A DNA stretch of 32,000 bases from an uncultured bacterium (GCA_965112635.1 OZ218778.1:1796404-1828403), one strand, 5' to 3'; counted from the first letter of the stretch, positions 7,159-30,300 are shown. A program made the numbers and translations. Notes: a model not told the origin generated them from the sequence alone.

Positions 7159-7170
7159 TTAATCATAAAA

Positions 7171-7352
7171 ATTCCCTGCGGTGTTCGTGATGAAATGACG
7201 AGTTTTGAGCCAACACCTTTTTGGAAGGGACCCGACCTCTAAAAGCAGTGTGCATACCTTGACTCAGGTTGAGGCAGCCTAATGCTTTTTCGGGGGTACC
7301 CACTTATTCATTAAGGTTCAAAAACCAAGTTTCACACGGCACAGGTGGGGAA
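7171..7352 (+). ncRNA. ssrS: 6S RNA (SsrS)
   Basis: 5' ATTCCCTGCGGTGTTCG pairs with 3' ACACGGCACAGGTGGGGAAT to form a closing stem; length about 182 nt; located directly after zapA; TATAAT about 12 nt upstream. Confidence 0.78.
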
Positions 7353-7372
7353 TTTTTATTTTGGGGAAAGAC

Positions 7373-12991: not shown

Positions 12992-13360
12992 GTGATCGCC
13001 GTTAGAAGCAAGCCCGTCAATCAAGAATTGGTGACCACGGTCCTTAAAGCCACTGACGATAAGCAAGCCCATGATGTTGTGCTTTTAGATGTCAGAAAAT
13101 TGACCTATTTGACCGACTACCTGCTTATTTGCCATGGCCATGCCAGGACCCATATTCAAGCCATAGCCGATGAATTAAGGACCAAGCTCAAAGCGATGGG
13201 GCTGGGTTATGGGAGGATGGAGCGGGACAAGGGAGAAACCTGGATCCTGTTGGATTTTAACGAAATTATTTGCCATATTTTTTCAAAGGAAGCTAGGGAG
13301 TTCTATGCTCTGGAGAAGTTTTGGGATGAAGCTCATAAAATCAATGGTAGGATACATTAA
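12992..13360 (+). CDS. rsfS: Ribosomal silencing factor RsfS (GTG start)
   Basis: DDKQAHDVVLLDVRKLTYLTDYLLICHGHARTHIQAIADEL...ERDKGETWILLDFNEIICHIFSKEAREFYALEKFWDEA. Confidence 0.93.
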   Translation: MIAVRSKPVNQELVTTVLKATDDKQAHDVVLLDVRKLTYLTDYLLICHGHARTHIQAIADELRTKLKAMGLGYGRMERDKGETWILLDFNEIICHIFSKEAREFYALEKFWDEAHKINGRIH

Positions 13361-13392
13361 TGAATTATGATTCTATTTTCAGGGGGTGGAGC

Positions 13393-14145
13393 ATGAGGCA
13401 GATAAAGGTCGTATCCATATTTTTGTTGATGGCAGTCCTTTTAGGGGGGCTTGTCCCAGTATCCGTTTTTGGCAAGGATGAAGACACGAAGCGTGTAGCC
13501 ACAAATTTGTATGTCGTGGATATCCCTACTGCGAACACTTTATTAAGGGGCACTTATGATGCCTTTGCCAGGTTGTACGCTCCCGACGGCATTGTCGGTA
13601 GGTTTGTGATAGCCTTGAACGACCAGTTTCTTTTTGGTGGCGGTATCAACATGGAAAATATCATTGGTTCGGGGGATGTCCAGGCCCAAACTCCGCGTTT
13701 TATAGCTAAATGGAGAATTATTGCGGAGGATAAAAATATCCCTGCCTGCGCCATAGGTTATGATGGGTTGGGTTATGGTGACTATAATTCTGATTCTGGG
13801 GTTTGGCAGCACAAGCAAAAAGGTTTTTATGGCGCAGTGACCAAAGAGTTCAGTAGTTTTGGAATCTTCCAATTGACGTGTGGAATGAGCAGGGTGGATA
13901 GTCGTGTTTATGACCCCCAGCGGGATATCACGGCATTTGCGGGTCTGGCTGCGGCTATTATCAAAGAAGTAGCTCTAAATGTGGAATATGATGATTGGTT
14001 TAATACTCAGGGCGGAGAATTTAATGTCGGGCTTGGTTATAATTTTGACCCTGCCATGAAGCTGGAATTTGATCTCGAGGATATCGGAAGAGCCGGGGAT
14101 TCCCTGGAGCGCACTTTAAAGATCGAATATTGCAATTACATTTAG
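13393..14145 (+). CDS. Predicted outer-membrane beta-barrel-like protein of unknown function with signal peptide
   Basis: From ATG 13393 (SD AGGGGG upstream) a good signal peptide MRQIKVVSIFLLMAVLLGGLVPVSVFG, then a YVVDIPTANTLLRGTYDAFARLYAPDGIVGRF...GFNVGLGYNF-type alternating beta pattern; C-terminal LKIEYCNYI. Confidence 0.6.
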   Translation: MRQIKVVSIFLLMAVLLGGLVPVSVFGKDEDTKRVATNLYVVDIPTANTLLRGTYDAFARLYAPDGIVGRFVIALNDQFLFGGGINMENIIGSGDVQAQTPRFIAKWRIIAEDKNIPACAIGYDGLGYGDYNSDSGVWQHKQKGFYGAVTKEFSSFGIFQLTCGMSRVDSRVYDPQRDITAFAGLAAAIIKEVALNVEYDDWFNTQGGEFNVGLGYNFDPAMKLEFDLEDIGRAGDSLERTLKIEYCNYI

Positions 14146-14205
14146 TGGCGAGATTTTCCCATATTTACAACCATTCTTGCTCTTTTTGTATTTTTAGCTA
14201 CTTCG

Positions 14206-14234
14206 TTGACAAACGGTATTATGACAAGTAATAT
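14206..14234 (+). promoter_or_regulatory. Strong predicted sigma70-type promoter for the motor-like gene cluster
   Basis: TTGACA (14206-14211), exact 17-nt spacer, TAATAT (14229-14234), about 100 nt upstream of the first gene. Confidence 0.72.
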
Positions 14235-14332
14235 TCATTCAATACAGTAATTCATATTGTAAAATCAGCGTTTTCTGTTGTTTGGTTGAGTGCGTGGGGA
14301 AGTATTTTCCCTGAAAAAATAAAAAAGGGAAA

Positions 14333-14692
14333 GTGAAGGGCGTGAAAAAAGCTGATGAAATCAAAAGACCTCTGAGTTTTGCGACAGGCGAAAAACGAGA
14401 GGCCTTTAGTGCTTTGATCAGGCTTCTCCAAAATGGCGACTGTACTCCTGAAGAACTCACCAAGTATATACTTTCCCAAAAGCAATCTCAGGAACAATCC
14501 GAAGAAACAGAAATCCCCGCTTCCCGGACATTCCATTTTGGATCCGATTATAGGACTAAAGAGCGAGCCTTTACTCATTTTGAGCATATGCCCCGGATGG
14601 CCAAGCCAAAAGTTAATTATTTCAACTGGACGGTATTCTTCTTCTTTCTTTTCATGACCATCTTTATACTTCGCAATTTTATTTTTCGATGA
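14333..14692 (+). CDS. Small protein with C-terminal transmembrane anchor (119 aa; alternative GTG start at 14342)
   Basis: Hydrophilic N-terminus and C-terminal helix NYFNWTVFFFFLFMTIFILRNFIFR; ends 10 nt before the FliF/FliG-like gene. Confidence 0.65.
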   Translation: MKGVKKADEIKRPLSFATGEKREAFSALIRLLQNGDCTPEELTKYILSQKQSQEQSEETEIPASRTFHFGSDYRTKERAFTHFEHMPRMAKPKVNYFNWTVFFFFLFMTIFILRNFIFR

Positions 14693-14702
14693 GGATAAAA
14701 CA

Positions 14703-16367
14703 GTGAGCTTTATCAAAGATTGTGACAACTGGCTGCGCTTGGGAAAAATGCTTACAGGCTGGTTGTTGTTTGTGAGCATTTTCTTTATGACCAGCATCTA
14801 CGCTTTGGACTTAACCCATGGTGACCTGTTGGTCGGAAAGTTGCAATATGAAAGGGAATTAGAAAGAAGGATACAGTCCATATTGATCTCCACGGTTGGT
14901 CCTCAAAAGGCGAAAGTTTCGGTGACCCTGGAGGTCAACAGCGAAGTCGTCTCCAGCAAGGAGGAAACAATCCATTCCGAGACCACCAGCCAGACCATTG
15001 TATTGAGCAACGGCATCCAAGAGGAGAACTTTGACAATCCTGAGGCGGGGACGGGTGGTCCAGGCAAGGAAGGCAGCGCCAATCAGGCTAGCAGCAATGT
15101 CTTGGAAGAAACCCGGACCACCAAAGAAACCTTGTCGATGCCTTCCAATTTGATCAAAAAGCTGTCTATCTCTTTGTTGATCAGCGACAAGGTCCCTGAT
15201 GCTCTTATCGAAAAAGCCAAGACCATCATTATGGAAGCAGTCAGTTTTAATGCCGACAGGGGGGACCAGCTATCTTTACAAAAGGTCACCTTTATTTCCG
15301 GTGCCGCAGGGGAGATGGAGCAGATCCAGGACCAAAAACAGACAGCGGATTTCTGGCTTGCTTTAACCCGGTATGCCTTGAGCTTGATCTTGGGGGTCGC
15401 TTTCCTTTTGTTTTTGTTCAGTTTGTTAAATACTTTCCGTACCCTGAAACAGGCTGAGATCAATGTGTCCGCTCAGGCCATAGCCGCCAAGGCAGCCCCT
15501 GCCGAAGGCGAGGTCGCAGGACCGGCCGGGGCCACGGCGATCCCGGCTGCGGGATTTGCTGCCGTAGGTGTCCCCGGCACAATGCTTCCCGGGATGCCTA
15601 TGGGAATGCCTGGAACGATCACGGTTGGACCCCAGCGCTTCGCTTTCCTCCAGGAGAAGAATTCCAGGGCTCTTCTGCATTTGATCCAAAAAGAGCCGAT
15701 CCAAACTATTGCTTTAGTGCTTTCCTATATTACCCCAGAGCAGGCAGCCGGGATCTTGCAGTCCCTCCCAGGGGAGATCCAAAGCCAGGTCGCCTCTAGG
15801 ATCTCTACGATCAGTGAAATGTCACCGACGGAAGTGAACAGAATCGAGCAGGATATCAAAGAGAAGATCGATTATGTGGTGGGGGGCAGGGATTCCCTGG
15901 TCAATATCATCCAGAGCATGGGTCCCGATGGAATGAAGGCTATCATCGGCAATCTTGACAGGAGCAATCCAAAGCTGGCCGGTGAATTGAGGCCTTCACT
16001 ATTTACTTTCGATGATGTCCTCCTGTTGGATAGTTTTGCGATCCAGCAAGTTGTCAGGCAACTGAGCATTCCGGAACTGGCCATCGCTTTAAAAAATGCC
16101 AGCGAAGAGATAAAGAACAAGGTTTTTGGGGCCTTGGCTGAGGGTGCCGCCCAGTTGCTCAGGCAGGAACTGGAGTTGATGAGGCCGCTGCCCGCTCGGC
16201 GCTATATAGAAGCGCAGCGTAAATTTATTCAGGCGGTAAGGATACTTGAACAACAGGGCGTAATCTTTGTGCAGAGAGAAGAATCGACTCCTTCCTCAGT
16301 CGGCGGCAACGACCTGGGTGGTGGGCCTGGTTTAGGGCCCGATTCTCCTTTGGCGCCGATGACCTAG
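14703..16367 (+). CDS. FliF (RBM3-like, two TM segments)-FliG (middle + C-terminal) fusion protein
   Basis: FliF-like ERELERRIQSILISTVGPQKAKVSVTLEVN...ETRTTKETLSMPSNLIKKLSISLLI...EAVSFNADRGDQLSL, then TM ALSLILGVAFLLFLFSLL, an Ala/Pro/Gly linker, then FliG-like EPIQTIALVLSYITPEQAAGILQSLP...VVGGRDSLVNIIQ...LFTFDDVLLLDSFAIQQVVRQLSIPELAIALKNASEEIKNKVF. Confidence 0.88.
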   Translation: MSFIKDCDNWLRLGKMLTGWLLFVSIFFMTSIYALDLTHGDLLVGKLQYERELERRIQSILISTVGPQKAKVSVTLEVNSEVVSSKEETIHSETTSQTIVLSNGIQEENFDNPEAGTGGPGKEGSANQASSNVLEETRTTKETLSMPSNLIKKLSISLLISDKVPDALIEKAKTIIMEAVSFNADRGDQLSLQKVTFISGAAGEMEQIQDQKQTADFWLALTRYALSLILGVAFLLFLFSLLNTFRTLKQAEINVSAQAIAAKAAPAEGEVAGPAGATAIPAAGFAAVGVPGTMLPGMPMGMPGTITVGPQRFAFLQEKNSRALLHLIQKEPIQTIALVLSYITPEQAAGILQSLPGEIQSQVASRISTISEMSPTEVNRIEQDIKEKIDYVVGGRDSLVNIIQSMGPDGMKAIIGNLDRSNPKLAGELRPSLFTFDDVLLLDSFAIQQVVRQLSIPELAIALKNASEEIKNKVFGALAEGAAQLLRQELELMRPLPARRYIEAQRKFIQAVRILEQQGVIFVQREESTPSSVGGNDLGGGPGLGPDSPLAPMT

Positions 16368-16421
16368 GAAGCCGCTGCGGCGTCAGATTGACACTAAAAC
16401 CAAGTTTGGAGCATATCAATA

Positions 16422-17186
16422 ATGGATAAGATGTCATTGTTTGGCTATGTCTTTGGTGTCGGTATATTCCTGCTGGGTATGCACCAGGGCGGGACGACCA
16501 GCCTTTTCTTGAATGAGCACGCGGTGGTCCTCGTGCTGGGGGGTACCTTTGCCGCTGTCATGATCAGTTCCAGTTTTGAACAGACGGTCGTCGCGTTTAA
16601 ATCCCTCAAAATATTGTTTTACCCCAAGAAGTATATGCCTGCTCAAGAAATCATCGATGTGATGGTAGGCTTGGCTGAGAAGGCCAGAAGGGATGGAGTG
16701 GGTTCTCTGCCCGAGGAGGCAAAAAAATATAATGAGCCCTTTCTTTCCAACTCGGTTCAGCTAGTGGCGGACGGTTTGCCTTCTGCAACGGTCCAGGAGA
16801 TCATTGAAATGGAGATCAATAATACCCGGGACCGCCATAAGGAGAACAGCAATTTCTACCGTGTGGCCGGTATCTACGGCCCCATGTTCGGTCTATTAGG
16901 AACTTTGATCGGCATCGTCCAGGTGCTGAGGAATATTGGGGGGGACCCGACCACAGTGGGTCCGGCCATGGCTGTTGCCATTACGACGGCTTTTTACGGG
17001 ATATTTCTGGCGAACTTTGTGTGTATGCCCATCGCCAATAAACTGAAATTAAGATCAGATGAAGAACTCGCTTTAAAAGAACTTACCATCGTTGGTCTTA
17101 TTGCCATCGAATCCGGAGACCTACCCTTGGTTGTGCGGAGAAAGATGGAGACTTTTCTGTCCTATTCCCAGAAAAAAAAGAAATAA
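16422..17186 (+). CDS. motA: MotA-family stator protein
   Basis: LGGTFAAVMISSSFEQ...GLAEKARRDGVGSLPEEA...YGPMFGLLGTLIGIVQVLRNIG...ITTAFYGIFLANFVCMPIANKLK. Confidence 0.92.
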   Translation: MDKMSLFGYVFGVGIFLLGMHQGGTTSLFLNEHAVVLVLGGTFAAVMISSSFEQTVVAFKSLKILFYPKKYMPAQEIIDVMVGLAEKARRDGVGSLPEEAKKYNEPFLSNSVQLVADGLPSATVQEIIEMEINNTRDRHKENSNFYRVAGIYGPMFGLLGTLIGIVQVLRNIGGDPTTVGPAMAVAITTAFYGIFLANFVCMPIANKLKLRSDEELALKELTIVGLIAIESGDLPLVVRRKMETFLSYSQKKKK

Positions 17187-17256
17187 AAAGCCGTTCATTT
17201 GTTGACCGGGAAAGCGAAGCAATGCTTCATCCCTCGAAGGGATAAAGGAATCTGCC

Positions 17257-17952
17257 ATGGCCATCAGAAAAAGACCTCCTGAAGATATCGAATCCCTTAT
17301 GCATCGCGGGACGCAATGGATCATTGTTTATGGCGACCTGATGTCCTATTTGATGATATTTTTCCTTATCTTGTTCGCATTTGCCTCGGCCAAAAAAGGG
17401 AATTTCGTGGAATCCCTCAAGGGAATTGAAAAAACCTTCGGGCAAAAAGAGAAGAAGATGTCCCAGGAGGCGATGAAAGAGGTTCAGGTCCAATCCGAGA
17501 TACAAAGTTTTCTGGTCGCGCAAAACCTGACCCAAGTTGCCCGCGTGGTCATGACCGAACAAGATCTAAAAGTTATATTGACCAGCCCAGTGCTTTTTCC
17601 GTCCGGCTCGGCAGAGTTGCATCGCAAATCTTACGGTATTTTGCATACTATAGCCCAATCTATGAAAGATATGCCGAACTATGTCACGGTTGAGGGCTTC
17701 ACGGATAATGTCCCAATTCATTCAGCCAAATACAGTTCCAACTGGGAATTGTCCGCGGCGCGAGCCATGCAAGTTGTCAAATACTTTATTGAAGAGGAGA
17801 AAATCTCTCCCACTCAGATCTCCTTCACGGGGTATGGCGAGTACCAGCCGGAATATACCAATGACACCGAAGAACACCGGGGATTGAATAGAAGGATCGA
17901 GATTATCATCCACCGCATTTTGGTCCCCGTCACGGCAACAAAAAAATCGTGA
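17257..17952 (+). CDS. motB: MotB-family stator protein with OmpA/MotB peptidoglycan-binding domain
   Basis: N-terminal TM with the conserved Asp (WIIVYGDLMSYLMIFFLILFAF); OmpA-like VEGFTDNVPI...NWELSAARAMQVVKYFIE...ISFTGYGEYQP...NRRIEIII. Confidence 0.93.
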   Translation: MAIRKRPPEDIESLMHRGTQWIIVYGDLMSYLMIFFLILFAFASAKKGNFVESLKGIEKTFGQKEKKMSQEAMKEVQVQSEIQSFLVAQNLTQVARVVMTEQDLKVILTSPVLFPSGSAELHRKSYGILHTIAQSMKDMPNYVTVEGFTDNVPIHSAKYSSNWELSAARAMQVVKYFIEEEKISPTQISFTGYGEYQPEYTNDTEEHRGLNRRIEIIIHRILVPVTATKKS

Positions 17953-17968
17953 GAATGAGGGCGGGATT

Positions 17969-19459
17969 TTGAGAATAATCATATGGGTCCTAGCCGCTTT
18001 GATCGTGGGGGGTGCCGGTCTTGCGGCGGCCCAGGAAGCCCAGATGCCCAGCGCCGACATCTTTGTCCACGGTAATCTGGGGCAGCAAAAGATCGGGAAT
18101 ACGATCGTCATCCAATGCGATGTCTTTAACACGGGGCCTGTGGCGCATTTTTTCCCGGTCTCCGTGAAATTAATGAACGCTGCCGATAACATCGTCCTGC
18201 CGTTCCAGTCCATTTATTTAAAACCCGGGCAGTTCGGCACCTTGACTTTCAATTATGCCTTAAAACCCGACAGCACGAGCCTCGGCCTTTATGCGGTGGA
18301 GGGCAGTGTTTGGCAGGTTCAGGGGCCTAAAAAACGCCTGTCCCTCAAAACCGATACCCAAATCTTTGAGGTGGTGTTGGGTGAAGTTATGAAAAGTGTC
18401 GTCCTGGAAAATTTAACGCTCAAGGGGAAGGTCGTGGGAGGCTCCACGGTGTCTTTGAAATGCCTGGTCCGCAACACCGGCAAGGTTTCCTATACCTTCC
18501 CCGTGAGCGTTAATTTGAGCGGGAGCGATGGGCCTTTTATCGCACCGGTCAAGACCGTGACCCTGGGGCCCAAAAAGAACCAGGGCCTTTCTTTTGATGT
18601 CAAAATACCCGCTGAAGGGATAGAGCCTAACGCGGTTTTGAGGGTCGTCGCCTGGGATAGGAAGGACGAGAAGGGAAAGTTGCTCATGCCTTACGCTGAC
18701 GCCGTCATATCCTTGGAGACAGCCAGCCAGACCTCGGTGGAGGCGTCTTTTGACGGCGAGATAGGGGACCAGCCCCGGGGCAAGACGTTTACTATTGCTT
18801 GCAAGATTAAAAATAACGGCGGCACCCGATTTGAGTTCCCCGTCAAGCTGGATATTTTAGATTCTTCTGATGAACTGGTCGCGACCCCTAAACCTAAAAA
18901 AGTCCTTTTAAAACCAGGGGAAACGAAAAGGATCGGCTTCAGCACCGCGATCAAAGAGGTGGGTGCTTACCAAGCTGTGGTGAGTGTTTGGAAAGAAAGA
19001 CGCGGACCCGACAGTTTTGTCGATAAGCTTACGGAGGAGGAACAGAATTTTTCGATTGCCAACGAAGCCACAGGAGGGGCTGAGCAGCAGGGGATGGACC
19101 TCGGAGTCGGCGAGACCCCTTCCGTGGCCCCGCCTGCGGTGAAATTGATGGACATCATGCTGGCAACATCCCAGGACCAAAAAACACCGGTCAAGGCCCA
19201 GGTGTCCGATAAATTGGGGGCGGTTTCCTGCCGCCTCTATTACCGCCTGAGCACCGAAACAAATCCTGATTTTGTGGAGATGAACCTTTTTTCTGGAGAT
19301 GCCAAGAGTGGAGTATGGGTGGGCGAGGTGGATCTCTCCAGACTTTCTGGAAAAATAATTTTTTACGCGGAAGCGGCCAATACAGAGTCCGTGCTAGGTC
19401 GATCCAAAGAATACAGTATTGCCAAGATGGCTACTCCGAAAAACAAACCCAATAAATGA
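17969..19459 (+). CDS. Secreted/periplasmic protein with three CARDB-like beta-sandwich repeats
   Basis: Signal peptide MRIIIWVLAALIVGGAGLAAAQ; repeats GNTIVIQCDVFNTGPVAHFFPVSVKLM / GSTVSLKCLVRNTGKVSYTFPVSVNLS / GKTFTIACKIKNNGGTRFEFPVKLDIL. Confidence 0.75.
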   Translation: MRIIIWVLAALIVGGAGLAAAQEAQMPSADIFVHGNLGQQKIGNTIVIQCDVFNTGPVAHFFPVSVKLMNAADNIVLPFQSIYLKPGQFGTLTFNYALKPDSTSLGLYAVEGSVWQVQGPKKRLSLKTDTQIFEVVLGEVMKSVVLENLTLKGKVVGGSTVSLKCLVRNTGKVSYTFPVSVNLSGSDGPFIAPVKTVTLGPKKNQGLSFDVKIPAEGIEPNAVLRVVAWDRKDEKGKLLMPYADAVISLETASQTSVEASFDGEIGDQPRGKTFTIACKIKNNGGTRFEFPVKLDILDSSDELVATPKPKKVLLKPGETKRIGFSTAIKEVGAYQAVVSVWKERRGPDSFVDKLTEEEQNFSIANEATGGAEQQGMDLGVGETPSVAPPAVKLMDIMLATSQDQKTPVKAQVSDKLGAVSCRLYYRLSTETNPDFVEMNLFSGDAKSGVWVGEVDLSRLSGKIIFYAEAANTESVLGRSKEYSIAKMATPKNKPNK

Positions 19460-19499
19460 TCCGGAATCAGGATACAGGCATCGGCCTTAGGGGTGAATC

Positions 19500-20177
19500 A
19501 TGAAGACAAGGTCAAAAAATATTTCAATGGAATTATCAATCAGCCTTTGTTTTCTTGTTTTGTTCTGCTTGTCCGCAGAGCTATGGGGCGCCCAGCCCAG
19601 CGCGACACCATTTTCCCCGCAGTCGGATAATGACTACGAACAAAATTACAACGAAGCGATGTCCTTTTACAATGCGGGATTGTTGGATAAGGCCAAGGCC
19701 AGCTTTCAAAAGGTGATCAAGATAAGACCAACGGCCGGAGCCTATCATTATCTGGGCATGATCAGCCAAAAAAAGAACCAGGTCAAAGACGCCATCTGGC
19801 AATGGAAGCAGGCTTTAAACTTGGAGCCGCGACTGGCTGTGGTCTGTTTTAATATCGGGTTGGCTTATGGTTCGTTGAAGCAAGTGGACGAACAGATTAA
19901 ATGGTATAAAAAGGCAGTGGCTTTAAATCCGAAATATTCAAAAGCATGGAACAATCTCGGTTCAGTGTATCTTGAGAAGAAGAGGACCACCGATGCATTA
20001 AATGCCTTTAGGACCTCGTTGAAAACCAATCCCCATTATGCTGTGGCCGCGGAGAATCTGGCCCTGGTCTATGAAAAGATGGGTCGTCACATTGAAGCCA
20101 AGAAGGAATGGAAATACGCCGCTTCGATAGAGACGAGGCCTGAGTGGAAAAAGGTTTTGGCAGCCAGAGCCAAGTAA
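19500..20177 (+). CDS. Tetratricopeptide-repeat protein, exported
   Basis: Signal-like N-terminus; TPR units such as AYHYLGMISQKKNQVKDAIWQWKQALNLEPR, AVVCFNIGLAYGSLKQVDEQIKWYKKAVALNPK and KAWNNLGSVYLEKKRTTDALNAFRTSLKTNP. Confidence 0.88.
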   Translation: MKTRSKNISMELSISLCFLVLFCLSAELWGAQPSATPFSPQSDNDYEQNYNEAMSFYNAGLLDKAKASFQKVIKIRPTAGAYHYLGMISQKKNQVKDAIWQWKQALNLEPRLAVVCFNIGLAYGSLKQVDEQIKWYKKAVALNPKYSKAWNNLGSVYLEKKRTTDALNAFRTSLKTNPHYAVAAENLALVYEKMGRHIEAKKEWKYAASIETRPEWKKVLAARAK

Positions 20178-20264
20178 TGAGCTAGCTAGATTCCTTTGGT
20201 TTTATCCTTTCAATTTTGTTTTTCCTTTATTTACAACCCTTTTATTAAATCCTTTTCTTAAATT

Positions 20265-20280
20265 TGTGACCAAAATCACA
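20265..20280. promoter_or_regulatory. Candidate CRP/FNR-superfamily binding palindrome
   Basis: Exact TGTGA-CCAAAA-TCACA in the only long intergenic gap of the locus, upstream of the PorV-like gene. Confidence 0.45.
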
Positions 20281-20380
20281 CCAAAAAAGTGAAGAAATCA
20301 AGGGAATTATCCTGGTTTATCCGCTAAAATTTCCTATAACAATTTATAAAAAATCGAAAAAGCCGGCCCAATGCGCGAGC

Positions 20381-20408
20381 TTGGGTGGGAAAACTATCCT
20401 CCTATAAT
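20381..20408 (+). promoter_or_regulatory. Predicted sigma70-type promoter for the PorV-like and giant protein genes
   Basis: TTGGGT (20381-20386), 16-nt spacer, TATAAT (20403-20408). Confidence 0.5.
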
Positions 20409-20429
20409 TTAGGAACAAGGGGTATACCG

Positions 20430-21365
20430 GTGGCTGATATACATAAAGAAAAAGATATTCTTCTTTTACCCCTTCTCATTACTTTTCTTGCCCTGACTTG
20501 CCTCATCTTCATCCCTGTCCTCGTGTCCGCTGAAGGAAATACTGCCGCTCAATTTTTAAAGATCCCTATCTCAGCCCGTCCAGCCGCCATGACTGCTTTT
20601 GGAGCCGTCTCTGACGACGTGAACGCCTTGCTTTATAACCCGGCCGGCTTATCCCAATTGTCCCAAAACGAGTTCTCCCTCTCCTATGTTAAATATTTCA
20701 CCGACACAAACATGGCATTTTTGGGACTGGCTGTCCCGCTCGCGCACATCGGCACTTTTGGTCTTGGCGTCACATACCTGAGCGTCCTGAATATTGACGC
20801 CAGGGACGCGCAGGAGAACCAGGCCGGAAGTTTTGGGAGCACGGATTGGGCCGTCACTTTGTCCTACGCCAAGGAAAACCTATGGGGCAACCTGAATGCA
20901 GGGGCAAGCCTTAAGGTGGTGGGGGAGACTATCGATGCCACAAGCGCAAACGGGCTGGCCGGCGATGTGGGGGTCCTTTGGATCGGTAAAGAGCCGAGGG
21001 CTTCGATAGGACTGGAAGTGGAAAATGTCGGGACCGGCCTGCAATTCATCAATGTCAGTGATCCCTTACCCTTGGGAGTTGTTCTATCAGGTGCTTACTG
21101 GCCAGTGGAACAGATAGTCGTCGGTACGGATGTGGACATGTATGTGCTGGAGAACAAGACCTATGTGTCCCTGGGCGGGGAAGACTGGCTGACCAAAGAG
21201 TTCGCTCTCAGGCTTGGTTACAAGTTCGGGACCGATCTGGGCCCGCTTTCCGGTTTGACCGGTGGGATAGGGCTGGCCATGGCGGGTTACAGCGTGGACT
21301 ATGCCGCTGGAGATGCCGGAGACCTGGGCACACTGCACCGGGTTTCTTTGGGAATAAAATTTTGA
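20430..21365 (+). CDS. PorV/PorQ-family outer-membrane protein
   Basis: GNTAAQFLKIPISARPAAMTAFGAVSDDVNALLYNPAGLSQLSQNEFSLSYVKYFTDTNMAFLGLAVPL signature. GTG 20430 has SD AAGGGG at 20417-20422 and lies downstream of the predicted promoter; the track start 20385 overlaps the promoter. Confidence 0.88.
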   Translation: MADIHKEKDILLLPLLITFLALTCLIFIPVLVSAEGNTAAQFLKIPISARPAAMTAFGAVSDDVNALLYNPAGLSQLSQNEFSLSYVKYFTDTNMAFLGLAVPLAHIGTFGLGVTYLSVLNIDARDAQENQAGSFGSTDWAVTLSYAKENLWGNLNAGASLKVVGETIDATSANGLAGDVGVLWIGKEPRASIGLEVENVGTGLQFINVSDPLPLGVVLSGAYWPVEQIVVGTDVDMYVLENKTYVSLGGEDWLTKEFALRLGYKFGTDLGPLSGLTGGIGLAMAGYSVDYAAGDAGDLGTLHRVSLGIKF

Positions 21366-21378
21366 AAGGGCAGGCTGA

Positions 21379-24300
21379 ATGAAGCTGGAAGGCATGTTAA
21401 AAAAAATAGGGAAGGCGGTCGTCCTGGCTCTGGTCCTGGGCCTGGGGATGATGCCTTTGGCCTATGCCGGCACCCGCATCAAAACCGTGGAATTTTTCCT
21501 GGGCCAGTATGAGATGGGGCAGGTCAATCTTATCCCTGCCCTTGAGTTTGACACCCCGTCCAAAACCATCGCCCTTCCAGAATCCTCTATTGTTGTCCGT
21601 TCAGCCTGGGTGGACATGCATTTTGTCAGCCAGGATCAAACCAATTTTGAAGCCAATTTTACCGCTGTCACCTTGACGGCAGGCTCTGCGATAGGTTTTG
21701 CCAGCACCAGCAAATTCGCCGCGGCGACAGACAGCCATGATAATGCTTATCATGTGAGATATGACTTTACTTCGGCCCTGCAAACTTTGACCACCGGCCA
21801 ATGGAATACTGGTCAAAGTGTTCAGGCCAAGATCAAATTTTTTGCCGCTACCAATTTCCATGCGGTCAAGCTGTATATCACCTATGAGTATGATGATACT
21901 TCCGCCACCCAGCTAAAAACCGTCAGATTCCCCCTGGATTCTATGGTGGGAGATTTGACCGTAGCTGACCTTCCTTGTACCGTGATGATCCCTCCAGCGG
22001 AAAGAAGTTCCCCGGGATACAGCTTGAAAGACGCCTGGTTCGAAGTGCACGGGCAGATGGATTATATCTCCGGTGCCATGACCGTAACCGCCCAGATCTA
22101 CCAGAGCGGCACTCCCCAGGGGTCTCCTTCCCAGGGAGGCTGTATCCCTTTGATCACCGGGAACGCTAATTTTGAGTGGACTTATTTTTACGATAATACA
22201 GCCAACCTGGCTCTGGATGGCACAACCCAAAGCCTGCGTTTAACGGCCAAGATGGGCAGTTTCCTGCATCCGGGCGGAGAACTGGTGGTCACTTACCAGG
22301 CCACCAATGATGTTATGGGCGCCTTAAAGACCGTGGAAATACCCCTGGCCCAGGGAGTTCTGGCCAATCAAGGTCCTGCCACTTTTACAATTCTGAATTA
22401 TCTCCAGGATAGCGGGGCCAACATACAAAAAATGTGGGCCAGGGTCAGAGGCGTCTGCAATGTGAACACTTATTCGGCCATTACTATTACCGGTGTGGCC
22501 AATGGCACACCAACGGGTCAGTTTGCTTATGAAATGTTTAGTTCCGGCGGCGGTTCAGATACCATGAATGAATACGAACTCATTTATGAAATGACCCAGC
22601 CCTATGCCAACCCCATGACCGTGACCCTGACCGCTACCGGCGGCTCCTCGCCCAGCGCTGTCCTGCTGATAACCTATGGTTGGAATAAGAACCAGAATGG
22701 ACATGAGTTCAAGACGCACCGGCAGCTGATAGGACAGGAAACCAGCCCTTTCCTGTCCGGGACAGTGGGAAATGTGACCGTTTATGCCCCTGAAACTAAT
22801 ACCAAAACCAAACAGGCTGCTTACGCGGATTGGACCTATTTTGCCGATGCCAATTCTACCAACTGGTGGGTCAGCACTACCATATCCGCGGGTTCGGGTA
22901 TGGCCCCAGCTTATGCCGCATTAGACAACAGCTATAAACAGACAGAAGGGATCAACCCAGACCTGAGTAGTGCTGTTTCTGTTTTGAATGCTTCCAATGG
23001 TCCTTATAGTTTTAATAGGAGCGGCTTTGTCATCGGTATGATGGGCGGGGATATGATCGTGACTTATGATGTAGCTTTCCCCACTTCCACCCCAACAAGT
23101 ACGCCCCCGCCGTCAACGTCAACTCCCACTACTTCTCCGACCCGGACGGCTACGGTTACGCCAACTGGAACGGCAACAACAACACCTACATCCACCTCTA
23201 CTAGAACTGCCACTAATACGGTTACTCCAACTTCCACATCGACAACCACCGTTACACTGAGTCAAACAGCTTCGGTCACTCCCAGCCTGACAATCACTCC
23301 CACTGGAACCCAGACACTCACGCAGACCTATACCGCCGGTCCCAGCCAGACGGCTACAATGACCCCTACGAGCACAACCACGATGACGGTAACAGCAACC
23401 CCTTCAGCAACGTTGACTATGACTACCACAGTCACGCAGACAGCCACACCGAATGGCGGCGGGACGACGATGCTGGATGCGATGACTGGGTTCAGCCTAG
23501 GTAGCGACCCGTGCGGCTACTTTCCTTTGCCAAGTGGTTCCATTACTCTTTCTAAAAATTCCAGTAACTATTACGATTGTTGCAATTCTTTACAAATATC
23601 CAACCTTACAAGCACTGGTACTATGGTGCAGATAAAAGTTGAAGATATCACAGGTTCTCCCCAGGATTGGTCCTGTTATTCATCCGTGTCTTTTTGGATA
23701 ATGGCAACTACTTCCGGGGTGCAATATCGGATTGGTTTAAGAGACAACTCCAGTAACTGGACTTGGTCAAGCACCAGTCCGCTTACTTGTCCAACCAGCT
23801 GGACGCAAGTAACCGTCCAGTTGCAAATGTTGGGAAATCCTACCGGATACGACGGATTTAAAAGCGGTTACCTAGGCCCTAATGACTTTAGCCAACTAAC
23901 TTGCGTGGAAATCGAATGTGATACGGCCAATGCGACCATACTAATGAATGACCTGGCGTTAGAAGGTAGTCCCTGCACACCTTCTCCCACGCCGTCTGGG
24001 TCGACCTATACTTATTCCTATACCTATACTTACACAACACCGCCGACCAACACCAATACCAATACTCCCACGCCTAGCAGCGCCACCTTGTACCTGTTGA
24101 ATACGACAACGGGTGATTCCAGTTTGTGGTATATGGACAAAACCAACCCGTCGCCCTCCACGGATACCACCACAATTCTTTCCACGGGGACCACGGCGGC
24201 TGGTAACTATTTCCTCGTTGAGCCTGGTGTGGCCAATTCCACCTCTTCAGGCACTGTTCTTCCCACTACTTTCAGCCAGATGGGCTGGAGAAGTCCAAAT

Positions 24301-27300
24301 ACTTCAGGCGGGACCATTTCAGCAGGGAACTGGACCGTTAATGTGAGCCTGACCAATAAGGCGGCCAGGTCCCACAAAGGATATGTCTGGGTCAGGTTCT
24401 GGAAGAGTTCCAACCCTGACGGCAGTGCAGCCACGGCTCTCAGCCCCTGGAACGAAAGCCCGAATCTGCTCAGTTTTCCTGCCTCGGTGACCACACTAGC
24501 GGATACTTTCAACGTTTCCATGCCGCTGGTGACCCTAAATAACGAATACCTTTTTGCGGAATACCTCTGGTTGATACAGACCGCGGGCCTTTCCAATACA
24601 GGGTTAAAATTTGTGGCCAATGAGGCCACCGGAGAGACCCTAGTTCTACCGGGATTTATTACTTTTACCCAGACCCCTACGCTGACTATGACGCCTACGG
24701 TTACCGCGACACCCGGGGGCGGCTCTCAGGTTTTTTATAACGGCGAGCCGGGGGGAGGATTTAGCGATGCAGATTGCGGCGGTGCCTGTGATTATATTGA
24801 CACGGGTGGCGGCCATGGTGGAGCGGTCACTGAGGACGGAGCCAGTGCACATTCCGGATCCTATGGTTTTGATTTTACCTATAATACTAGTGCTGCGGAT
24901 ACAGATGGTTACTTTTCCTGGACCTGGACGACCAACTATCCCAGCAGGGCCATCAACATCAACTCCTACGATACCGTGTCTTTCTGGATAAAATCGAACA
25001 GCACCAGGAACACAGATACTCTCTTCTTTTATTTGTTTGACATTAACAATGTGGCCACGAGCTCCCTGGATATTGAGCCATATATCGCTGGAGGGGGGCC
25101 TGTCAATCTTTCGTGGAAACAGGTCTCCATACCCCTTTGGGCGTTTACTTATGGCACTTTTAATAAAACCCAAGCCGCGGGTTTTGAAATAGACCTCAGC
25201 GACTCCGCCCTCACCGGGCCGGTGACCCTGCATATGGATGACGGATATTTCATGTTCTCCGGAGTGGGCACTCCCACCACTACACCCACACCAACGGCCA
25301 CACCGAATGGCAGTTGCCCTAATAACCCCGCAATGTCAAATATCAGCATAGGGGTTGGTTCGGGGTATTCCAACTATAATGCCGGAACCTATACTGTCAA
25401 TGGAATGGGCAATGGTGTTACAAATAGCGCTGATTCGTTCGACCTGGATTATCTAAGCGTTACGGGAAACAGTATTACGATGGTAGCCAGGGTGACGGGG
25501 GCTACTTATAACTCCGGCATCACAATCAGAAATAGCACCGGCAACGCCGCGGCCTTGGTCGCGCTGTCCATGAATAACAGCGGCATGCTTTACTGTTTAT
25601 ACCGGTACAACGACGGTATGGTAGCCAATAGCACTTATTATGGAACATATTCCTTCCCTTACTACCTTAAGATCATCCGCTATGGAAGCAGTAATTTTGA
25701 TCTCCAGATATCAGCGGATGGCAACACTTGGAATGAGTTGACTTTTCTGAACGGGGTATCTTTAGGCAGTACGGTTGCTGTGGGACTCGAGACCTGGGAT
25801 GGCACTGACACGGTCACGGCCACCGGAACTTTTGATAATGTTTGTATTCAAAGCTCCGGGGGGGTCAGTACCCCAACCTATACCCAGACCCTGACACCCA
25901 CGCCATCAGGACCGACCAATACTATTACCAATACCTTTACTATTACCAATACGATTACCCCTTCCTTTACCCCTGTGGGAGCGACCTATACCAACACCCC
26001 CGTTTCCTGCGGGTGGTCCGAGGCGTTGCTGAGCCCGGCTGAACAGCCCTGGCAGTCGGGATACAACGATACGCAGCCTGGCACCAACGCTCCTTATCCA
26101 GTTGCCGGGGTAGCCAACCTGGGGCAGGGGATAGCCAATTTCGGCTGCGGCCAGGGCTATATTGCCACCAATTCGGACCAGGATGTCTACCAGTTCCGCA
26201 TTCTGAGCTCGGACATCAATAACGGCACCTGCACCAATATGCTTAAGATAGTTTTCACTCCCCCGTCCACTAGTGATAGTTATTATTGTAATCTTTATCA
26301 CTGGAGCGGCTCTTCCTGGCAATCTTCGAATAGCCACAGCGGGGGCAGTGCCATGACCTTTTATTGCGATCTGTCCGCGGGCGGGAACCAGGATTTTTAT
26401 ATGGTCATCGGCAGCCAAAGCGGTTCCGACCAAGGTCATCCCTATGTGGTCCAGATGTCTATGTTGCAAACCGGGACTATCAGCGGCGTAGTGACGGCCG
26501 TTGGCGTGGGGGCTTCTGGGTCAAGCGGCATTGGAGTCTCGGCATGCGATTCTCAGAGCAATAGTTTTGGCGGGAGCTCCACGAACTCCTCAGGGGCCTA
26601 CACGGTCCGTGTGCCAATCAATACGACGGTTTCCAAGATTACCGCGACGCGCGGATGGTACTACGGATGCGCCAGTGACTGGTCCTATGGAACTTCGGTA
26701 CTTAACTACGGCGCCGGGGAGGTACTGGCCTCTCAGTGCCAAAGTCTGACCAACCAAAATTTCAATGTTTATCCTGACGCGATCTTAAAAGGAAATATAA
26801 CAGGGCTGACCAACGGGACCAGTATCAATATGAAGATCAGTGACCCCTATGGCTCCAATTTTTCAAATTACGTGCAATTTAACTATAATTCTTCCGCCCC
26901 GACCTATTATGAGATCCACAACGCCATGCCGCGCACCTATGATCTATCCGTTTATCCCAGCGATGCTACTAAAGCCCCGCTGTTCTTCCATAATATAACC
27001 GTCACGGATGGCTTGCAGACCACCCAGAACTGGAACTTTATCTCGGGCGGCAGCATCAGCGGGACGATCTCGCCGACGGATCCCGGCGTGGAGGTAGACT
27101 TTTACGAGGGAGGGACCAATTTTTCAGGGGATCCCATTTATACGACCAGGACCGCTTCTGGTGCTTCCTACTTTATGACCAATATGCAACCGGGTAGTTA
27201 TGATATAAAGCTCAGCTCCGGTGGTGGTGGCCCGGCACCCTTTTACGCCTATAACTCAATACCCGTGACCAATGGCAACAACACCAACCAGCCGATCACC

Positions 27301-30300
27301 GGCCTGAACGGCAATAGCACCATTTCCGGCCAGGTCTTTGACACCGCAGGTTATGGAGCCGGGAACCTTACCCTCATAGGATACAGGGTCGGAGATAACG
27401 TCATGCAGTTGGCTATCCCTATGATGATGGTAACTCCGGTAGGGTCGGCTTCACCTTATACCTATACTTTGCCAGTGGATACCACTTATGGGGGCTCGTG
27501 GAACATTGCGTTGATTGCCAATTTGCAATCCAATAGCTGGCCGACCTTCCTGGACGCCCTTGCTAATGTTCCAGCAGGATCCACAGGCCAGAATCTTACC
27601 ACTAACGGGGGACACAAAATTTCCGGAATGGTATTAGTAGGGGGGCAGACTTTTAGCCAGCTCGGTTATTTAAATAACAGCAGTAATTTACCTGTTTTTA
27701 TTTTTAATTCCAGCAATGTTTGGCGTGACGGAAACAGCCTGGACTCGTTGGGTAACTATATTTCACACCAGCTTCCTGACGGAACTTATACCCTGAAGCT
27801 TAACCAGAGATTTTTGAGTACTGCCCAGATCAGTCCGACCCTTGCGGGCGTTGACCTCTACAATCAGAACTTTAACCTTACCGTGGATCCCACACAGGAT
27901 ATCTTTTATCCCTATGCCAGCCAGCTCTATCCGGCCAACAATATGACCATTCTCAACAGCCAGCCGACCATCAGCGCGTCTCTGTCCGATGGGACGCTGG
28001 GCACTGCTATCCAGAACATCTCGACCAAAATAGACGGCGGCACGGTGGGGAATACTTTCAATTCCGGCGTGGTGAGCTTTAGCCCGGCTGCGGCTCTTTC
28101 CGGCGGGTCTCACAGTGCTGAGGTCAAGTTCAGTGATTCCGCCAGCCCTTCAGCCCACAGCCAGGATGAGGTCTGGACCTTCAGTATTGCCACCTCCACC
28201 AACACCCCTTCTTCCACGCTGACCTCTACGATGACACAAACGCCGACACCCTTGCCTACACCCGTTTTCACCAGTATCAACGGCGGGCCCAGCGCGTTCC
28301 TGGGCGAGGGTGCCACTGCCCAGACCATAACTATTGTCGGAAACAATTTTGGAGGAACCATCGGGTCAGTAAGTTTCAGCGGGGCTGGTGTCACAGTGAC
28401 CAGCTATCCAGCCTGGAACAACACTACTATCACTTTATCCGTCAATGTGGATACCTATGCTCCCACCAACACCATTCCCGACCGATTTCTCACTATTGTC
28501 AACGGGTCCAACGGCGGCTCCGCGATGACGGGAAATGTGTTTTATGTGGTGCCCCGGCCCAATGCCAGCATTACCACATTCATGTATCCTTCCAACCTGG
28601 GTCAGGGAGCTGTAAACGCTACCATCGATATCTTTGACCCCTCAGGATATTTCGGGTCAACTCCGGGCTCGCTCCTGCTGGATGCTCCCGGCCATACCAA
28701 TATCACCTCGTACAGCATTCAGGCGTGGGACAGTCATTCCATCACCATGACCGCCAGCGCTAGCAGCAGCGCTATTCCAGGCGACTATGGACTGACCATC
28801 ACCGCCTCTTCGGCCAGCGGATCCGGTATTGGTGTGTTTAATTGGTTCTCAGTTGTGCCCGGCCCCGTGGTCAACAGTGTTTCCACCACATCCAACCTCA
28901 ACTATCTGGGCCAGGGCGCAGTCAATCAGATTGTGAATGTCTATGGCGCTGGGTTTGGGGCTAGCCGTGGGACAAGCGGGTCAGTCAGTTTCAGTGGGCC
29001 CGGTATTACAGTAAACGGATATCCAAGCTGGAGCGATAGTCAGATACAGGTCAATGTATCTGTTGCGCTAAATGCTTGGACCACATCCCGGACGGTCACC
29101 GTGGTGAACGGCCTGAACTACGGCCAGGTAACCACGGGCAATATATTCAGCGTATCTCCTTCCCCCAATTCGTTCGGTTTCACGGTGATGACCCCTCCCG
29201 GCTTGTTCCAAGGGGCTAGCAACGTGACCATCAATCTCTATGACCCCAATGCGACTTTTGGGACCGCTCCTGGTTTGCTGCTGCTGGATAGCGCCAGCGG
29301 TAATGCCAACATTACCTCTTATAGCCCCAATATGTGGAGCGCTAATTCCATTACCCTGACCGCCAGCGTGAGCAGTACTGCCGCCTTTGGGTACTATGCC
29401 CTGACCATCACGGCGAATGTCGGTAACGGGTCCGGTGTCGGGGCTTTCAACGGGTTCCGCATCATCCCGTCGTCCACGGCTACAGCCACGGCAACGGCGA
29501 CGGCAACCAGCACCGCCACCGTGACGACCACGGCCACGCAGACAGCCACCCAGACGGCGACCCAGACGGCCACCAATACCGCCACAACCACAGCAACTAG
29601 CACGGCTTCTAGTACGGCTACCAATACGGCGACCCAGTCTGCCACAGCTACGAGCACGGCAGCATTCACAGGGACCTATACAGCTACGGGCACGGCTACC
29701 CAGACTGCCACGAATACAAACACCGAGACCGCGACCAGCACAGCAACAAATACGGAGACCCAGAGTGCCACTAATACGGCTTCCCAAACAGCATCCCAGA
29801 CCGTGACCCTGACGGCTACAAATACAGCTACGAATTCAGCGACGGCCACGGCCACCAATACGGTGACGCAGACCGCCACAGCCACTGGCACGGCAGCATT
29901 CACAGGGACCTATACAGCTACGGGCACGGCTACTCAGACTGCCACGAATACAAACACCGAGACCGCGACCAGCACAGCAACAAATACGGCTACCCAGACG
30001 GCCTCCCAGACGACCACTCAGACCACCACGGCAACGGGCACGGCAGCATTCACAGGGACCTATACGGCCACAGGAACGGCTACCCAGACGGTTACGAATA
30101 CGGACACCCAGACTGGGACCAGCACAGCTACAAATACGGCTACCCAAACCTCCAGCCAGACGGCTTCCCAAACAGCATCCCAGACCACAACCCAGACGGC
30201 CACCAATACCATAACGAATACAGCTACGGCCACAGTCACCAGCACGATCACACAGACCGCCACAGCCACGGACACGGCAGCATTTACAGGGACCTATTCA

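Follow-up and report, generated by a model that had tools for sequence, protein, structure and literature searches.

A 32,000-nucleotide (nt) stretch of DNA from an uncultured bacterium (GCA_965112635.1 OZ218778.1:1796404-1828403), referred to below as the window, carries a locus in which FliF and FliG domains are fused into a single rotor protein encoded next to a MotA/MotB stator, two exported proteins, a PorV/PorQ-family outer-membrane barrel and a giant exported protein. Based on the domain identities, the key stator residues, a distinct FliG signature and a linkage that recurs across divergent lineages, the locus is proposed, with slightly better than even confidence, to encode a non-flagellar, envelope-spanning machine that is constructed from rotor and stator parts of the flagellar type and acts on the PorV-type barrel and its giant cargo. 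The features of the locus are as follows.

14206-14234, + strand: putative sigma-70-like promoter candidate TTGACA-N17-TAATAT, read directly in the sequence
14333-14692, + strand: small protein of 119 residues with a C-terminal membrane anchor, 10 nt 5' of the fusion gene
14703-16367, + strand: FliF(RBM3-like)-transmembrane (TM)-linker-FliG(M+C) fusion of 554 residues, assigned from Pfam, NCBIfam, PDB alignment and AlphaFold2 (AF2) with Foldseek
16422-17186, + strand: stator A subunit of flagellar type (MotA/PomA-like; MotA_ExbB E = 6e-27)
17257-17952, + strand: stator B subunit MotB, with a plug, a TM helix bearing the channel Asp and an OmpA-like peptidoglycan-binding domain
17969-19459, + strand: exported protein of 496 residues with a signal-peptide-like N-terminus and weak Ig-like (CARDB/HYDIN-type) matches
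19500-20177, + strand: exported TPR protein of 225 residues with a signal-peptide-like N-terminus (TPR_2 E = 1e-25)
20265-20280, + strand: perfect CRP/FNR-type palindrome TGTGA-N6-TCACA, TGTGACCAAAATCACA, a candidate site within a 252-nt gap
20430-21365, + strand: PorV/PorQ-family outer-membrane beta-barrel, 311 residues from a GTG start (NF033709, 157.1 bits against a cut-off of 90)
21379-32000, + strand: giant exported surface protein, 3540 residues in the window and 3740 by the public gene call

The fusion protein is composed of a first TM segment (residues ~4-33), a periplasmic domain (~37-195), a second TM segment (~211-261), a disordered Ala/Gly/Pro linker of about 50 residues and FliG_M plus FliG_C (312-525). 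Its Pfam E-values are 3e-11 for YscJ_FliF_C, 3e-20 for FliG_M and 8e-29 for FliG_C, and the periplasmic domain of about 160 residues spans the whole YscJ_FliF_C model (positions 1-147). The FliG part is aligned with Thermotoga maritima FliG_MC at E = 7.5e-40 in a PDB sequence alignment. In Foldseek searches with the AF2 model of the fusion (predicted local distance difference test score, pLDDT, 76.5), solved FliG_MC was matched at E = 3e-13 with ~40% identity (Thermotoga FliG), and the periplasmic part was matched to the RBM3/S-ring of Salmonella and Vibrio FliF (E ~1e-3, probability 1.0), with a disordered stretch at residues 94-136 occupying the place of the FliF beta-collar insertion. Neither RBM1 nor RBM2 was found in the fusion, the Foldseek matches being restricted to RBM3/S-ring parts of FliF, and FliG_N is also missing from it, the FliG_N profile match overlapping the M domain. 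From this layout, the covalent linker is predicted to stand in for the contact between the FliF C-terminus and the FliG N-terminal domain. The Gly-Gly hinge and the (M/L)FxF motif of FliG are retained; the position of the FliM-binding motif reads KEPIQ, compared with EHPQ in T. maritima, and the acidic pair of the torque helix (equivalents of E. coli D288/D289) is Q-E.

The fusion belongs to a large family. An exhaustive HMMER profile search was run against 1.84 billion representatives of clusters at 50% identity; among the best 150 matches, a single unbroken match covers everything between the RBM3 region and the FliG_C end in approximately 80 proteins of 450-735 residues, many others resemble divergent fusions, and ordinary FliG (~335 residues) surfaces only near the bottom. 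This search overturned the view, taken from a word-index search with four full-length relatives, that the fusion is rare, and a repeat search seeded with an alignment of 43 sequences gave the same matches and added none. In the 43 aligned members, which are 23-31% identical to the window fusion, no departure from the Gly-Gly hinge is seen, (I/L)F-x-F-(E/D)-D persists as a motif, and E-[PST]-P-[ED] stands in place of EHPQ. The consensus of the torque helix is N-[LM]-S-E-G-A-A-A-L-L-K-E-E-M-E, in which 38 of the 43 members carry Gly, with Glu just before it, at the position of E. coli R281, and the equivalents of D288/D289 are acidic or Gln (consensus E-E). Such a pattern would be that of a rotor which still engages a flagellar-type stator and is devoid of a switch complex.

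A conserved cytoplasmic TPR-like tail (...WQTYQYLGxCYY...LNPxN...) follows FliG_C in many members of the family, namely in P0051, P0052, P0056-P0059, P0061, P0064 and others, as well as in the fusions at L025 2082-4241 and L026 10001-11896; in the fragments seen, these tailed fusions have no adjacent MotA, and a long coiled-coil protein follows them (L026, L034). The fusions of clade D (lineage B below) end in an additional TM helix rather than in this tail. In four longer proteins, P0110 (996 residues), P0119 (787 residues), P0142 (774 residues) and P0190 (869 residues), ~550-630 residues precede a FliG_MC match at the extreme C-terminus, and they may be full-length FliF-FliG fusions that occur naturally in true flagella.

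The stator genes downstream of the fusion are of the flagellar type. Among the NCBIfam models, MotA is matched best by PomA (183.9 bits, against 22.9 bits for TolQ), is aligned with solved flagellar MotA at E = 6e-42, and retains R89/R90, E98/E99 and the Pro residues of TM3 and TM4. MotB is matched by MotB_plug (3e-10) and OmpA (8e-21) and scores 138-162 bits on MotD/MotB models, with the channel Asp conserved in the motif YGDLMS. Both scores are under the NCBIfam equivalog cut-offs (PomA 184 against 341; MotD 162 against 283). The MotA proteins linked to the fusion in six lineages keep [RK][RKT] at positions 89-90 and Glu at 99. Two MotB genes follow MotA in clade D and in L033, and in the second MotB of clade D (L009 9660-10343) the channel Asp is changed to Asn (YGNLMT), which suggests a heteromeric or regulatory B subunit.

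The exported partners and the outer-membrane side are encoded immediately downstream. The 496-residue protein gave only matches below the cut-offs (E = 1e-3 to 8e-3), and no internal repeats were found in it by BLAST. The initial annotation had called this protein exported and "CARDB-like"; the export agrees with its signal-peptide-like N-terminus, and the CARDB assignment is weak, since CARDB itself is matched at E = 0.008, below the cut-off, leaving an Ig-like protein at most. The TPR protein that the same annotation had placed in the motor unit is indeed matched by TPR_2, and it also gave weak matches to GltE and Tgl models. For the barrel, likewise, the PorV/PorQ family was correctly called; on the equivalog models, it falls short of both cut-offs (PorQ 123.7 against 220; PorV 55.2 against 250). 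It ends in ...GIKF and is homologous to the barrels adjacent to the fusion in L009, L025, L026 and L030. Its start is more likely to be the GTG at 20430 than the longest-ORF (open reading frame) start at 20385, because the gene callers and the signal peptide that follows favour the former; therefore, the gap after the TPR gene would be 252 nt rather than 207 nt. The 119-residue protein encoded in front of the fusion has no Pfam or NCBIfam family match, although its reading frame is predicted as a gene in L001 and L002 and its C-terminal TM segment (FNWT...IFR-stop) is kept in L006, a relative with 56% identity.

The six ORFs from 14333 to 20177 lie on the same strand, and the gaps of 10, 54, 70, 16 and 40 nt given for them in the initial annotation are exact; the 13-nt spacing between the PorV-like ORF, ending at 21365, and the giant ORF, opening at 21379 and still open at the window edge, also holds. 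The sequence reported as a promoter at 14206-14234 is present in a 187-nt intergenic space, 98 nt 5' of the first ORF. It is the best and the only 10/12 sigma-70-like match within 13000-22000, a region in which 20 sites of at least 9/12 were observed, compared with 10.5 +/- 3.1 in shuffled sequences. No intrinsic terminators or terminator-like hairpins were found in any gap of the locus. The AT-rich 252-nt gap contains TGTGACCAAAATCACA, the sole perfect CRP/FNR-type match in the window (~0.8 chance matches are expected at one mismatch or fewer), and possible -10 elements (TAAAAT, TATAAC and TATAAA) lie 45-70 nt downstream of it; the palindrome was not found in the loci of other lineages. Because of this site, the PorV-like and giant genes may possess their own regulated promoter.

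The giant protein consists of a signal peptide, four N-terminal beta-rich repeats and long Thr/Ser/Pro linkers, together with weak CBM-, Ig- and Fn3-like and prealbumin-like modules. Its N-terminal 560 residues (21379-23058) form about four repeats marked by ...ITYEYDDTSxTQ(I/L)KTV(R/K)(F/I)PL..., a module that has no Pfam, NCBIfam or PHROG match. The AF2 model of this region is poor (pLDDT 56.5), and Foldseek returned only generic tandem jelly-roll/beta-sandwich folds (template-modelling score < 0.2). Among P0027-P0048, the same module builds standalone proteins of ~630 residues without signal peptides and occurs in membrane-anchored proteins of 780-930 residues, one of them from a Patescibacteria metagenome-assembled genome (MAG). 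Over the Thr-rich (ACN-codon) linker of the giant gene, at window 29000-31200, AT skew reaches 0.42 and GC skew is negative; antisense ORFs in this region (e.g., 29068-29787) were rejected as genes, being composition artefacts without family matches.

The final 114 in-window residues of the giant can be aligned with the L033 giant across 126 columns (31% identity; E = 3e-6), and the alignment stops at FTLEVN/FDLEIN, with 200 residues left in the window giant and 199 in that of L033. The final 199 residues of the L033 giant are a prealbumin-like domain followed by a C-terminal sorting domain (CTD) of the kind that the T9SS (type IX secretion system) uses. From the alignment and the matching remaining length, the same ending, one prealbumin-like domain plus a type A CTD of ~95 residues, is predicted for the window giant. 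In the L033 and L026 giants, a small L025 protein and two clade-D proteins, the C-termini are of one domain type, all ending in ...K[IL][AG]V[IL][HK]-stop, and three of them pass sorting-domain cut-offs.

L033 giant: 25.0 bits on TIGR04183 (sorting domain, T9SS type A; cut-off 23)
L026 giant: 23.7 bits on TIGR04183 (sorting domain, T9SS type A; cut-off 23)
Clade-D Fn3 protein: 38.7 bits on TIGR04131 (sorting domain, type B; cut-off 35)

These domains are most similar to the CTDs found in PorU, in PorZ and in an M6-like protein that depends on T9SS (E = 1e-12 to 1e-10). Because they also match Pfam FlgD_ig, a family of the same beta-sandwich fold, the CTD assignment made from these profiles is to be read as a sorting-domain fold class and not as proof of T9SS dependence.

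Readable flanks of the fusion gene were available for 11 divergent lineages, the window being counted as lineage A. Negative results for flagellar and T9SS genes refer to the 32-kb window and the flanks of the related loci rather than to whole genomes. The gene orders in the other lineages are as follows.

Lineage B (clade D): Fn3 protein with a T9SS-type CTD, 842-residue PorV-like+TPR protein, fusion, MotA, MotB, MotB; continued by sensor kinase, 3xREC-GGDEF, 2xREC, 3xREC, 173-residue CTD protein and a second PorV-like+TPR protein
Lineage C (L025): CTD protein, PorV-like+TPR protein, fusion with a C-terminal TPR
Lineage D (L026): giant of at least 3521 residues with a CTD, PorV-like+TPR protein (148 bits), fusion-TPR, coiled-coil protein
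Lineage E (L030): PorV-like+TPR protein, fusion
Lineage F (L031): 633-residue outer-membrane protein (OMP) with an N-terminal Ig-like domain, fusion, MotA
Lineage G (L033): fusion, MotA, MotB, MotB, periplasmic TPR protein; beside the motor genes, a homologue of the L031 OMP, FecR, a CARDB-like protein and a 5243-residue giant with a CTD; another giant upstream
Lineage H (L027): fusion, MotA
Lineage I (L028/L029): no OMP or cargo nearby
Lineage J (L034): no OMP or cargo nearby
Lineage K (L035): fusion, MotA

Conservation of the neighbourhood in related genomes, on which the initial annotation had let its proposal of a FliG/MotAB-type motor serving a giant surface protein depend, was thus found. 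A PorV/PorQ-family barrel stands beside the fusion in five of the 11 lineages, usually fused to TPR, and a barrel of a different family in two; MotA is adjacent in six, and T9SS-type CTD proteins, including giants of 5243 and at least 3521 residues, are present in four. The linkage part of that proposal holds across divergent lineages, while the service to the giant is read from gene linkage. The barrel lies before or after the motor depending on the lineage, and TPR occurs free, fused to the barrel or fused to the rotor; the periplasmic TPR protein of L033 matches the TPR portion of the barrel fusion in clade D at E = 9e-54. Because the components co-occur under rearranged orders and fusion states, their linkage looks functional, as far as gene order can indicate, rather than inherited synteny. 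No other flagellar gene families, including those for the type III export apparatus, rod, hook and filament, were found in the window or in the flanks of the 11 lineages.

Clade D comprises 19 contigs, six of which (including L008-L011) are from MAGs that represent GTDB species. The clade-D MAGs L007-L012 are labelled "Clostridia bacterium" at NCBI (unverified) and yet encode PorV-family barrels and T9SS-type sorting domains, a mismatch that points to either unreliable labelling or an unusual diderm lineage. The OMPs at L031 410-2311 and L033 14798-16705 (- strand), of 633 and 635 residues, are members of one family (E = 1e-163 between them) that is encoded beside fusion/MotA, combines a CARDB-like Ig domain at the N-terminus with a beta-barrel that ends in (I/R)(N/S)YSF, and has no database match. 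These OMPs were rejected as PorV-like barrels by hhalign and as relatives of the giant's N-terminus, to which no relation was found.

A possible mechanism was proposed for the machine, in which we infer the assembly and rotation of a ring, its coupling across the periplasm and the eventual output. As in FliF, the RBM3-like periplasmic domain would mediate oligomerization of the fusion, giving a ring in the inner membrane that displays one FliG_MC per subunit on the cytoplasmic face, combining the MS-ring and the upper C-ring in a single polypeptide. Stators of the MotA5B2 type, held to peptidoglycan by MotB, could use ion flow against the FliG_C torque helix to turn the ring. With no rod, hook, export gate or FliM/FliN switch at the locus, the periplasmic face of the ring may hand work to the exported partners, namely the Ig-like 496-residue protein and the TPR protein, the latter being barrel-fused in other lineages. 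These partners could then reach the PorV/PorQ-family barrel, which would bind the sorting domain of the adjacent giant; in type IX secretion, a barrel of the PorV/PorQ kind binds the C-terminal sorting domain of the cargo. The output may be export or gating, attachment, or surface movement (adhesion or gliding) of the giant protein. In clade D, two-component and cyclic di-GMP control is suggested by the kinase, REC and GGDEF genes; the CRP-like site in the window gap suggests control of the same kind, and both would fit a device for surface behaviour.

Several points weigh against this proposal. The torque-helix Arg, which is the partner of MotA E98 in E. coli, is replaced in the fusion family. 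The 252-nt gap with its CRP-like site splits the motor genes from the PorV-like and giant genes, so that a single transcription unit reaching the giant gene is putative, and the TPR protein of the window is only generically similar to the barrel-fused TPRs of other lineages. The last 200 residues of the window giant, including any CTD, fall beyond the window, and a complete flagellum or a canonical T9SS (GldKLMN, SprA) may be encoded elsewhere on the chromosome. Three of the 11 lineages (L028/L029, L034 and L035) have no OMP or cargo near the fusion, and the OMP of two others is of a different family with no relation to PorV detectable by hhalign. Furthermore, PorV in the known T9SS is a shuttle without direct coupling to the motor.

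On its torque side, the locus is by its sequences most like the flagellar motor, and on its outer-membrane and cargo side most like type IX secretion and gliding; it would be a member of neither, because the tests for RBM1/RBM2, FliG_N and the FliM-binding motif fail on the one side and the locus lacks GldLM, GldKN and SprA on the other. The likeness to the flagellar motor extends from the RBM3-like ring domain, FliG M and C, the Gly-Gly hinge and the MFxF-like motif to the R/E loop residues of MotA and the plug, channel Asp and OmpA-like domain of MotB. Engineered FliF-FliG fusions have served for structures (PDB 8z4d), and the fusion of the locus is a natural one. In contrast to the flagellar motor, the fusion has no RBM1, RBM2 or FliG_N, EHPQ and the torque-helix Arg are replaced family-wide, genes for the export gate, rod, hook, filament and FliM/FliN are missing from the window and related flanks, and the neighbours are outer-membrane barrels, TPR proteins and giant CTD proteins.

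The resemblance to T9SS and Bacteroidota gliding lies in an ion-driven motor that is genetically tied to a PorV/PorQ-family barrel and very large surface proteins, and in the type A or type B sorting domains carried by the loci related to the window. The pairing of the PorV-like and giant genes recalls that of SprB and SprF in gliding, in which a barrel gene is next to that of a giant adhesin. However, the motor of the locus is MotAB with a FliF-FliG ring and not GldL5M2, and the window barrel passes the family model only, not the PorV or PorQ equivalog cut-offs. No Pfam or NCBIfam match to PorL/PorM (GldL/GldM) or PorK/PorN was found in the locus or related loci; GldK/N, SprA/Sov, PorU and PorZ were not detected in the locus, and SprA/Sov and PorU/PorZ were not detected in related loci either. 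The Agl-Glt system of Myxococcus is similar in concept, leading from an inner-membrane ion motor through a periplasmic TPR protein to outer-membrane barrels and an adhesin, but the Agl motor is of the TolQR type without a FliG-like rotor (the window MotA scores 184 bits for PomA against 23 for TolQ), and no Glt homologues were detected at the locus. Zorya (ZorAB) and the Tol and Ton systems (TolQR, ExbBD) are 5:2 motors that likewise represent non-flagellar uses of MotAB-superfamily ion motors; the locus differs in having no ZorA, TolQ or ExbB signature, and none of them, to our knowledge, uses a FliG ring as the driven element.

The alternative that fares best, although it is unlikely, is that the motor powers another outer-membrane process, such as uptake or gating through a FadL-like barrel, Tol-like tethering or remodelling, or signalling, or that the ring is a static scaffold, the giant being a neighbour under related regulation and not the load. 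PorV/PorQ-family proteins are FadL-like barrels and the window barrel exceeds the cut-off of the family-level model alone, two lineages carry the unrelated Ig-plus-barrel OMP, the fusions of L027 and L035 have MotA and no cargo nearby, and regulators are often encoded nearby, for example a histidine kinase, REC-GGDEF, FecR and a cyclase fragment. In contrast, CTD proteins recur beside the module in four lineages and giants in three, only 13 nt separate the PorV-like and giant genes of the window, and the stator residues specific for torque on FliG are conserved.

It is improbable that the adjacency is due to chance, with a motor operon (14206-20177) and an uncoupled, separately regulated PorV-like/adhesin operon after 20265. 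Such a division would agree with the AT-rich gap, its palindrome and possible -10 elements, and with a TPR protein that has no specific similarity to the barrel-fused TPRs. However, the same component families are found together in at least five divergent lineages with varied orders and fusion states, a co-occurrence that is hard to attribute to chance because PorV-family genes are few per genome, and the gap contains no terminator. A similarly low probability is given to a decaying remnant of a flagellar locus, or to an accessory or paralogous rotor part of a true flagellum encoded elsewhere. The FliG and MotAB parts are plainly of the flagellar type, and rotor proteins without filaments have been reported in ~11% of non-motile genomes (bioRxiv 10.1101/2024.12.05.626484); on the other hand, the family is large and diverse, with a conserved architecture of its own and retained functional residues, the FliM-binding motif and FliG_N are systematically absent, the flanks hold no flagellar gene, the usual fliH/fliI/fliJ neighbours being replaced by motA, and the genes alongside encode outer-membrane and surface proteins. 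A Zorya-like anti-phage defence on a MotAB-type motor is scarcely credible and was rejected with PADLOC, as MotB shows only generic ZorB/MotB similarity (42-75 bits on ZorB models, against 138-162 bits on flagellar MotB models), MotA is of normal length without a ZorA match or the long ZorA tail, ZorC, ZorD and ZorE are not found, and the motor partner is FliG.

The window has the same sequence as positions 173695-205694 of contig_13896 in ENA ERZ25039471, and its left half is core chromosome, with infC, rplT, a SpoU methylase gene, pheS, pheT, a zapB-like gene, zapA, 6S RNA, rarA, the 5-formyltetrahydrofolate (5-FTHF) cyclo-ligase gene and the genes for HU, proB, proA, nadD and rsfS. The 6S RNA (7170-7355, + strand; Rfam RF00013, 92.7 bits against a gathering threshold of 46.4) is located between zapA and rarA/5-FTHF cyclo-ligase, which resembles the zapA-ssrS-ygfA order in E. 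coli. A gene at 13360-14145 (+ strand), immediately upstream of the candidate promoter for the motor genes and with a start codon that overlaps the rsfS stop codon (ATGA), encodes an exported protein of 261 residues without a family match.

A new class of rotary machine, in which a FliF-FliG rotor and MotAB spend torque on the periplasm and outer membrane to export, anchor or move CTD giants, is put forward tentatively, at somewhat less than even confidence. Few ion-driven rotary machines are known to us, and we know of none in which a FliG ring drives anything other than a flagellum. No published account of this module was found in literature searches, the incomplete coverage of which makes this weak evidence of absence; it is apparently a new system, with a function that is hypothetical. 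A phylogenetic study of MotAB treats flagellar-type stators as flagellar (PMC12505986), and the function of the rotor proteins in non-motile genomes without filaments was left unexplained (bioRxiv 10.1101/2024.12.05.626484). Genes of the fusion family are now annotated as "flagellar motor switch protein FliG", which would mislabel genomes as motile.

If the proposal is correct, the locus would represent a new secretion or motility device in uncultured diderm bacteria, in which a rotor and stator are wired to T9SS-style parts, and it would give a concrete answer to the occurrence of rotor proteins in filament-less genomes (bioRxiv 10.1101/2024.12.05.626484). The fusion would also provide a natural minimal rotor for structural work. 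Furthermore, a rotor-stator module able to operate in the absence of type III export would bear on the use of half a flagellar motor, and it would inform models of the origin of the flagellar motor in which the torque module and the export apparatus have separate histories.

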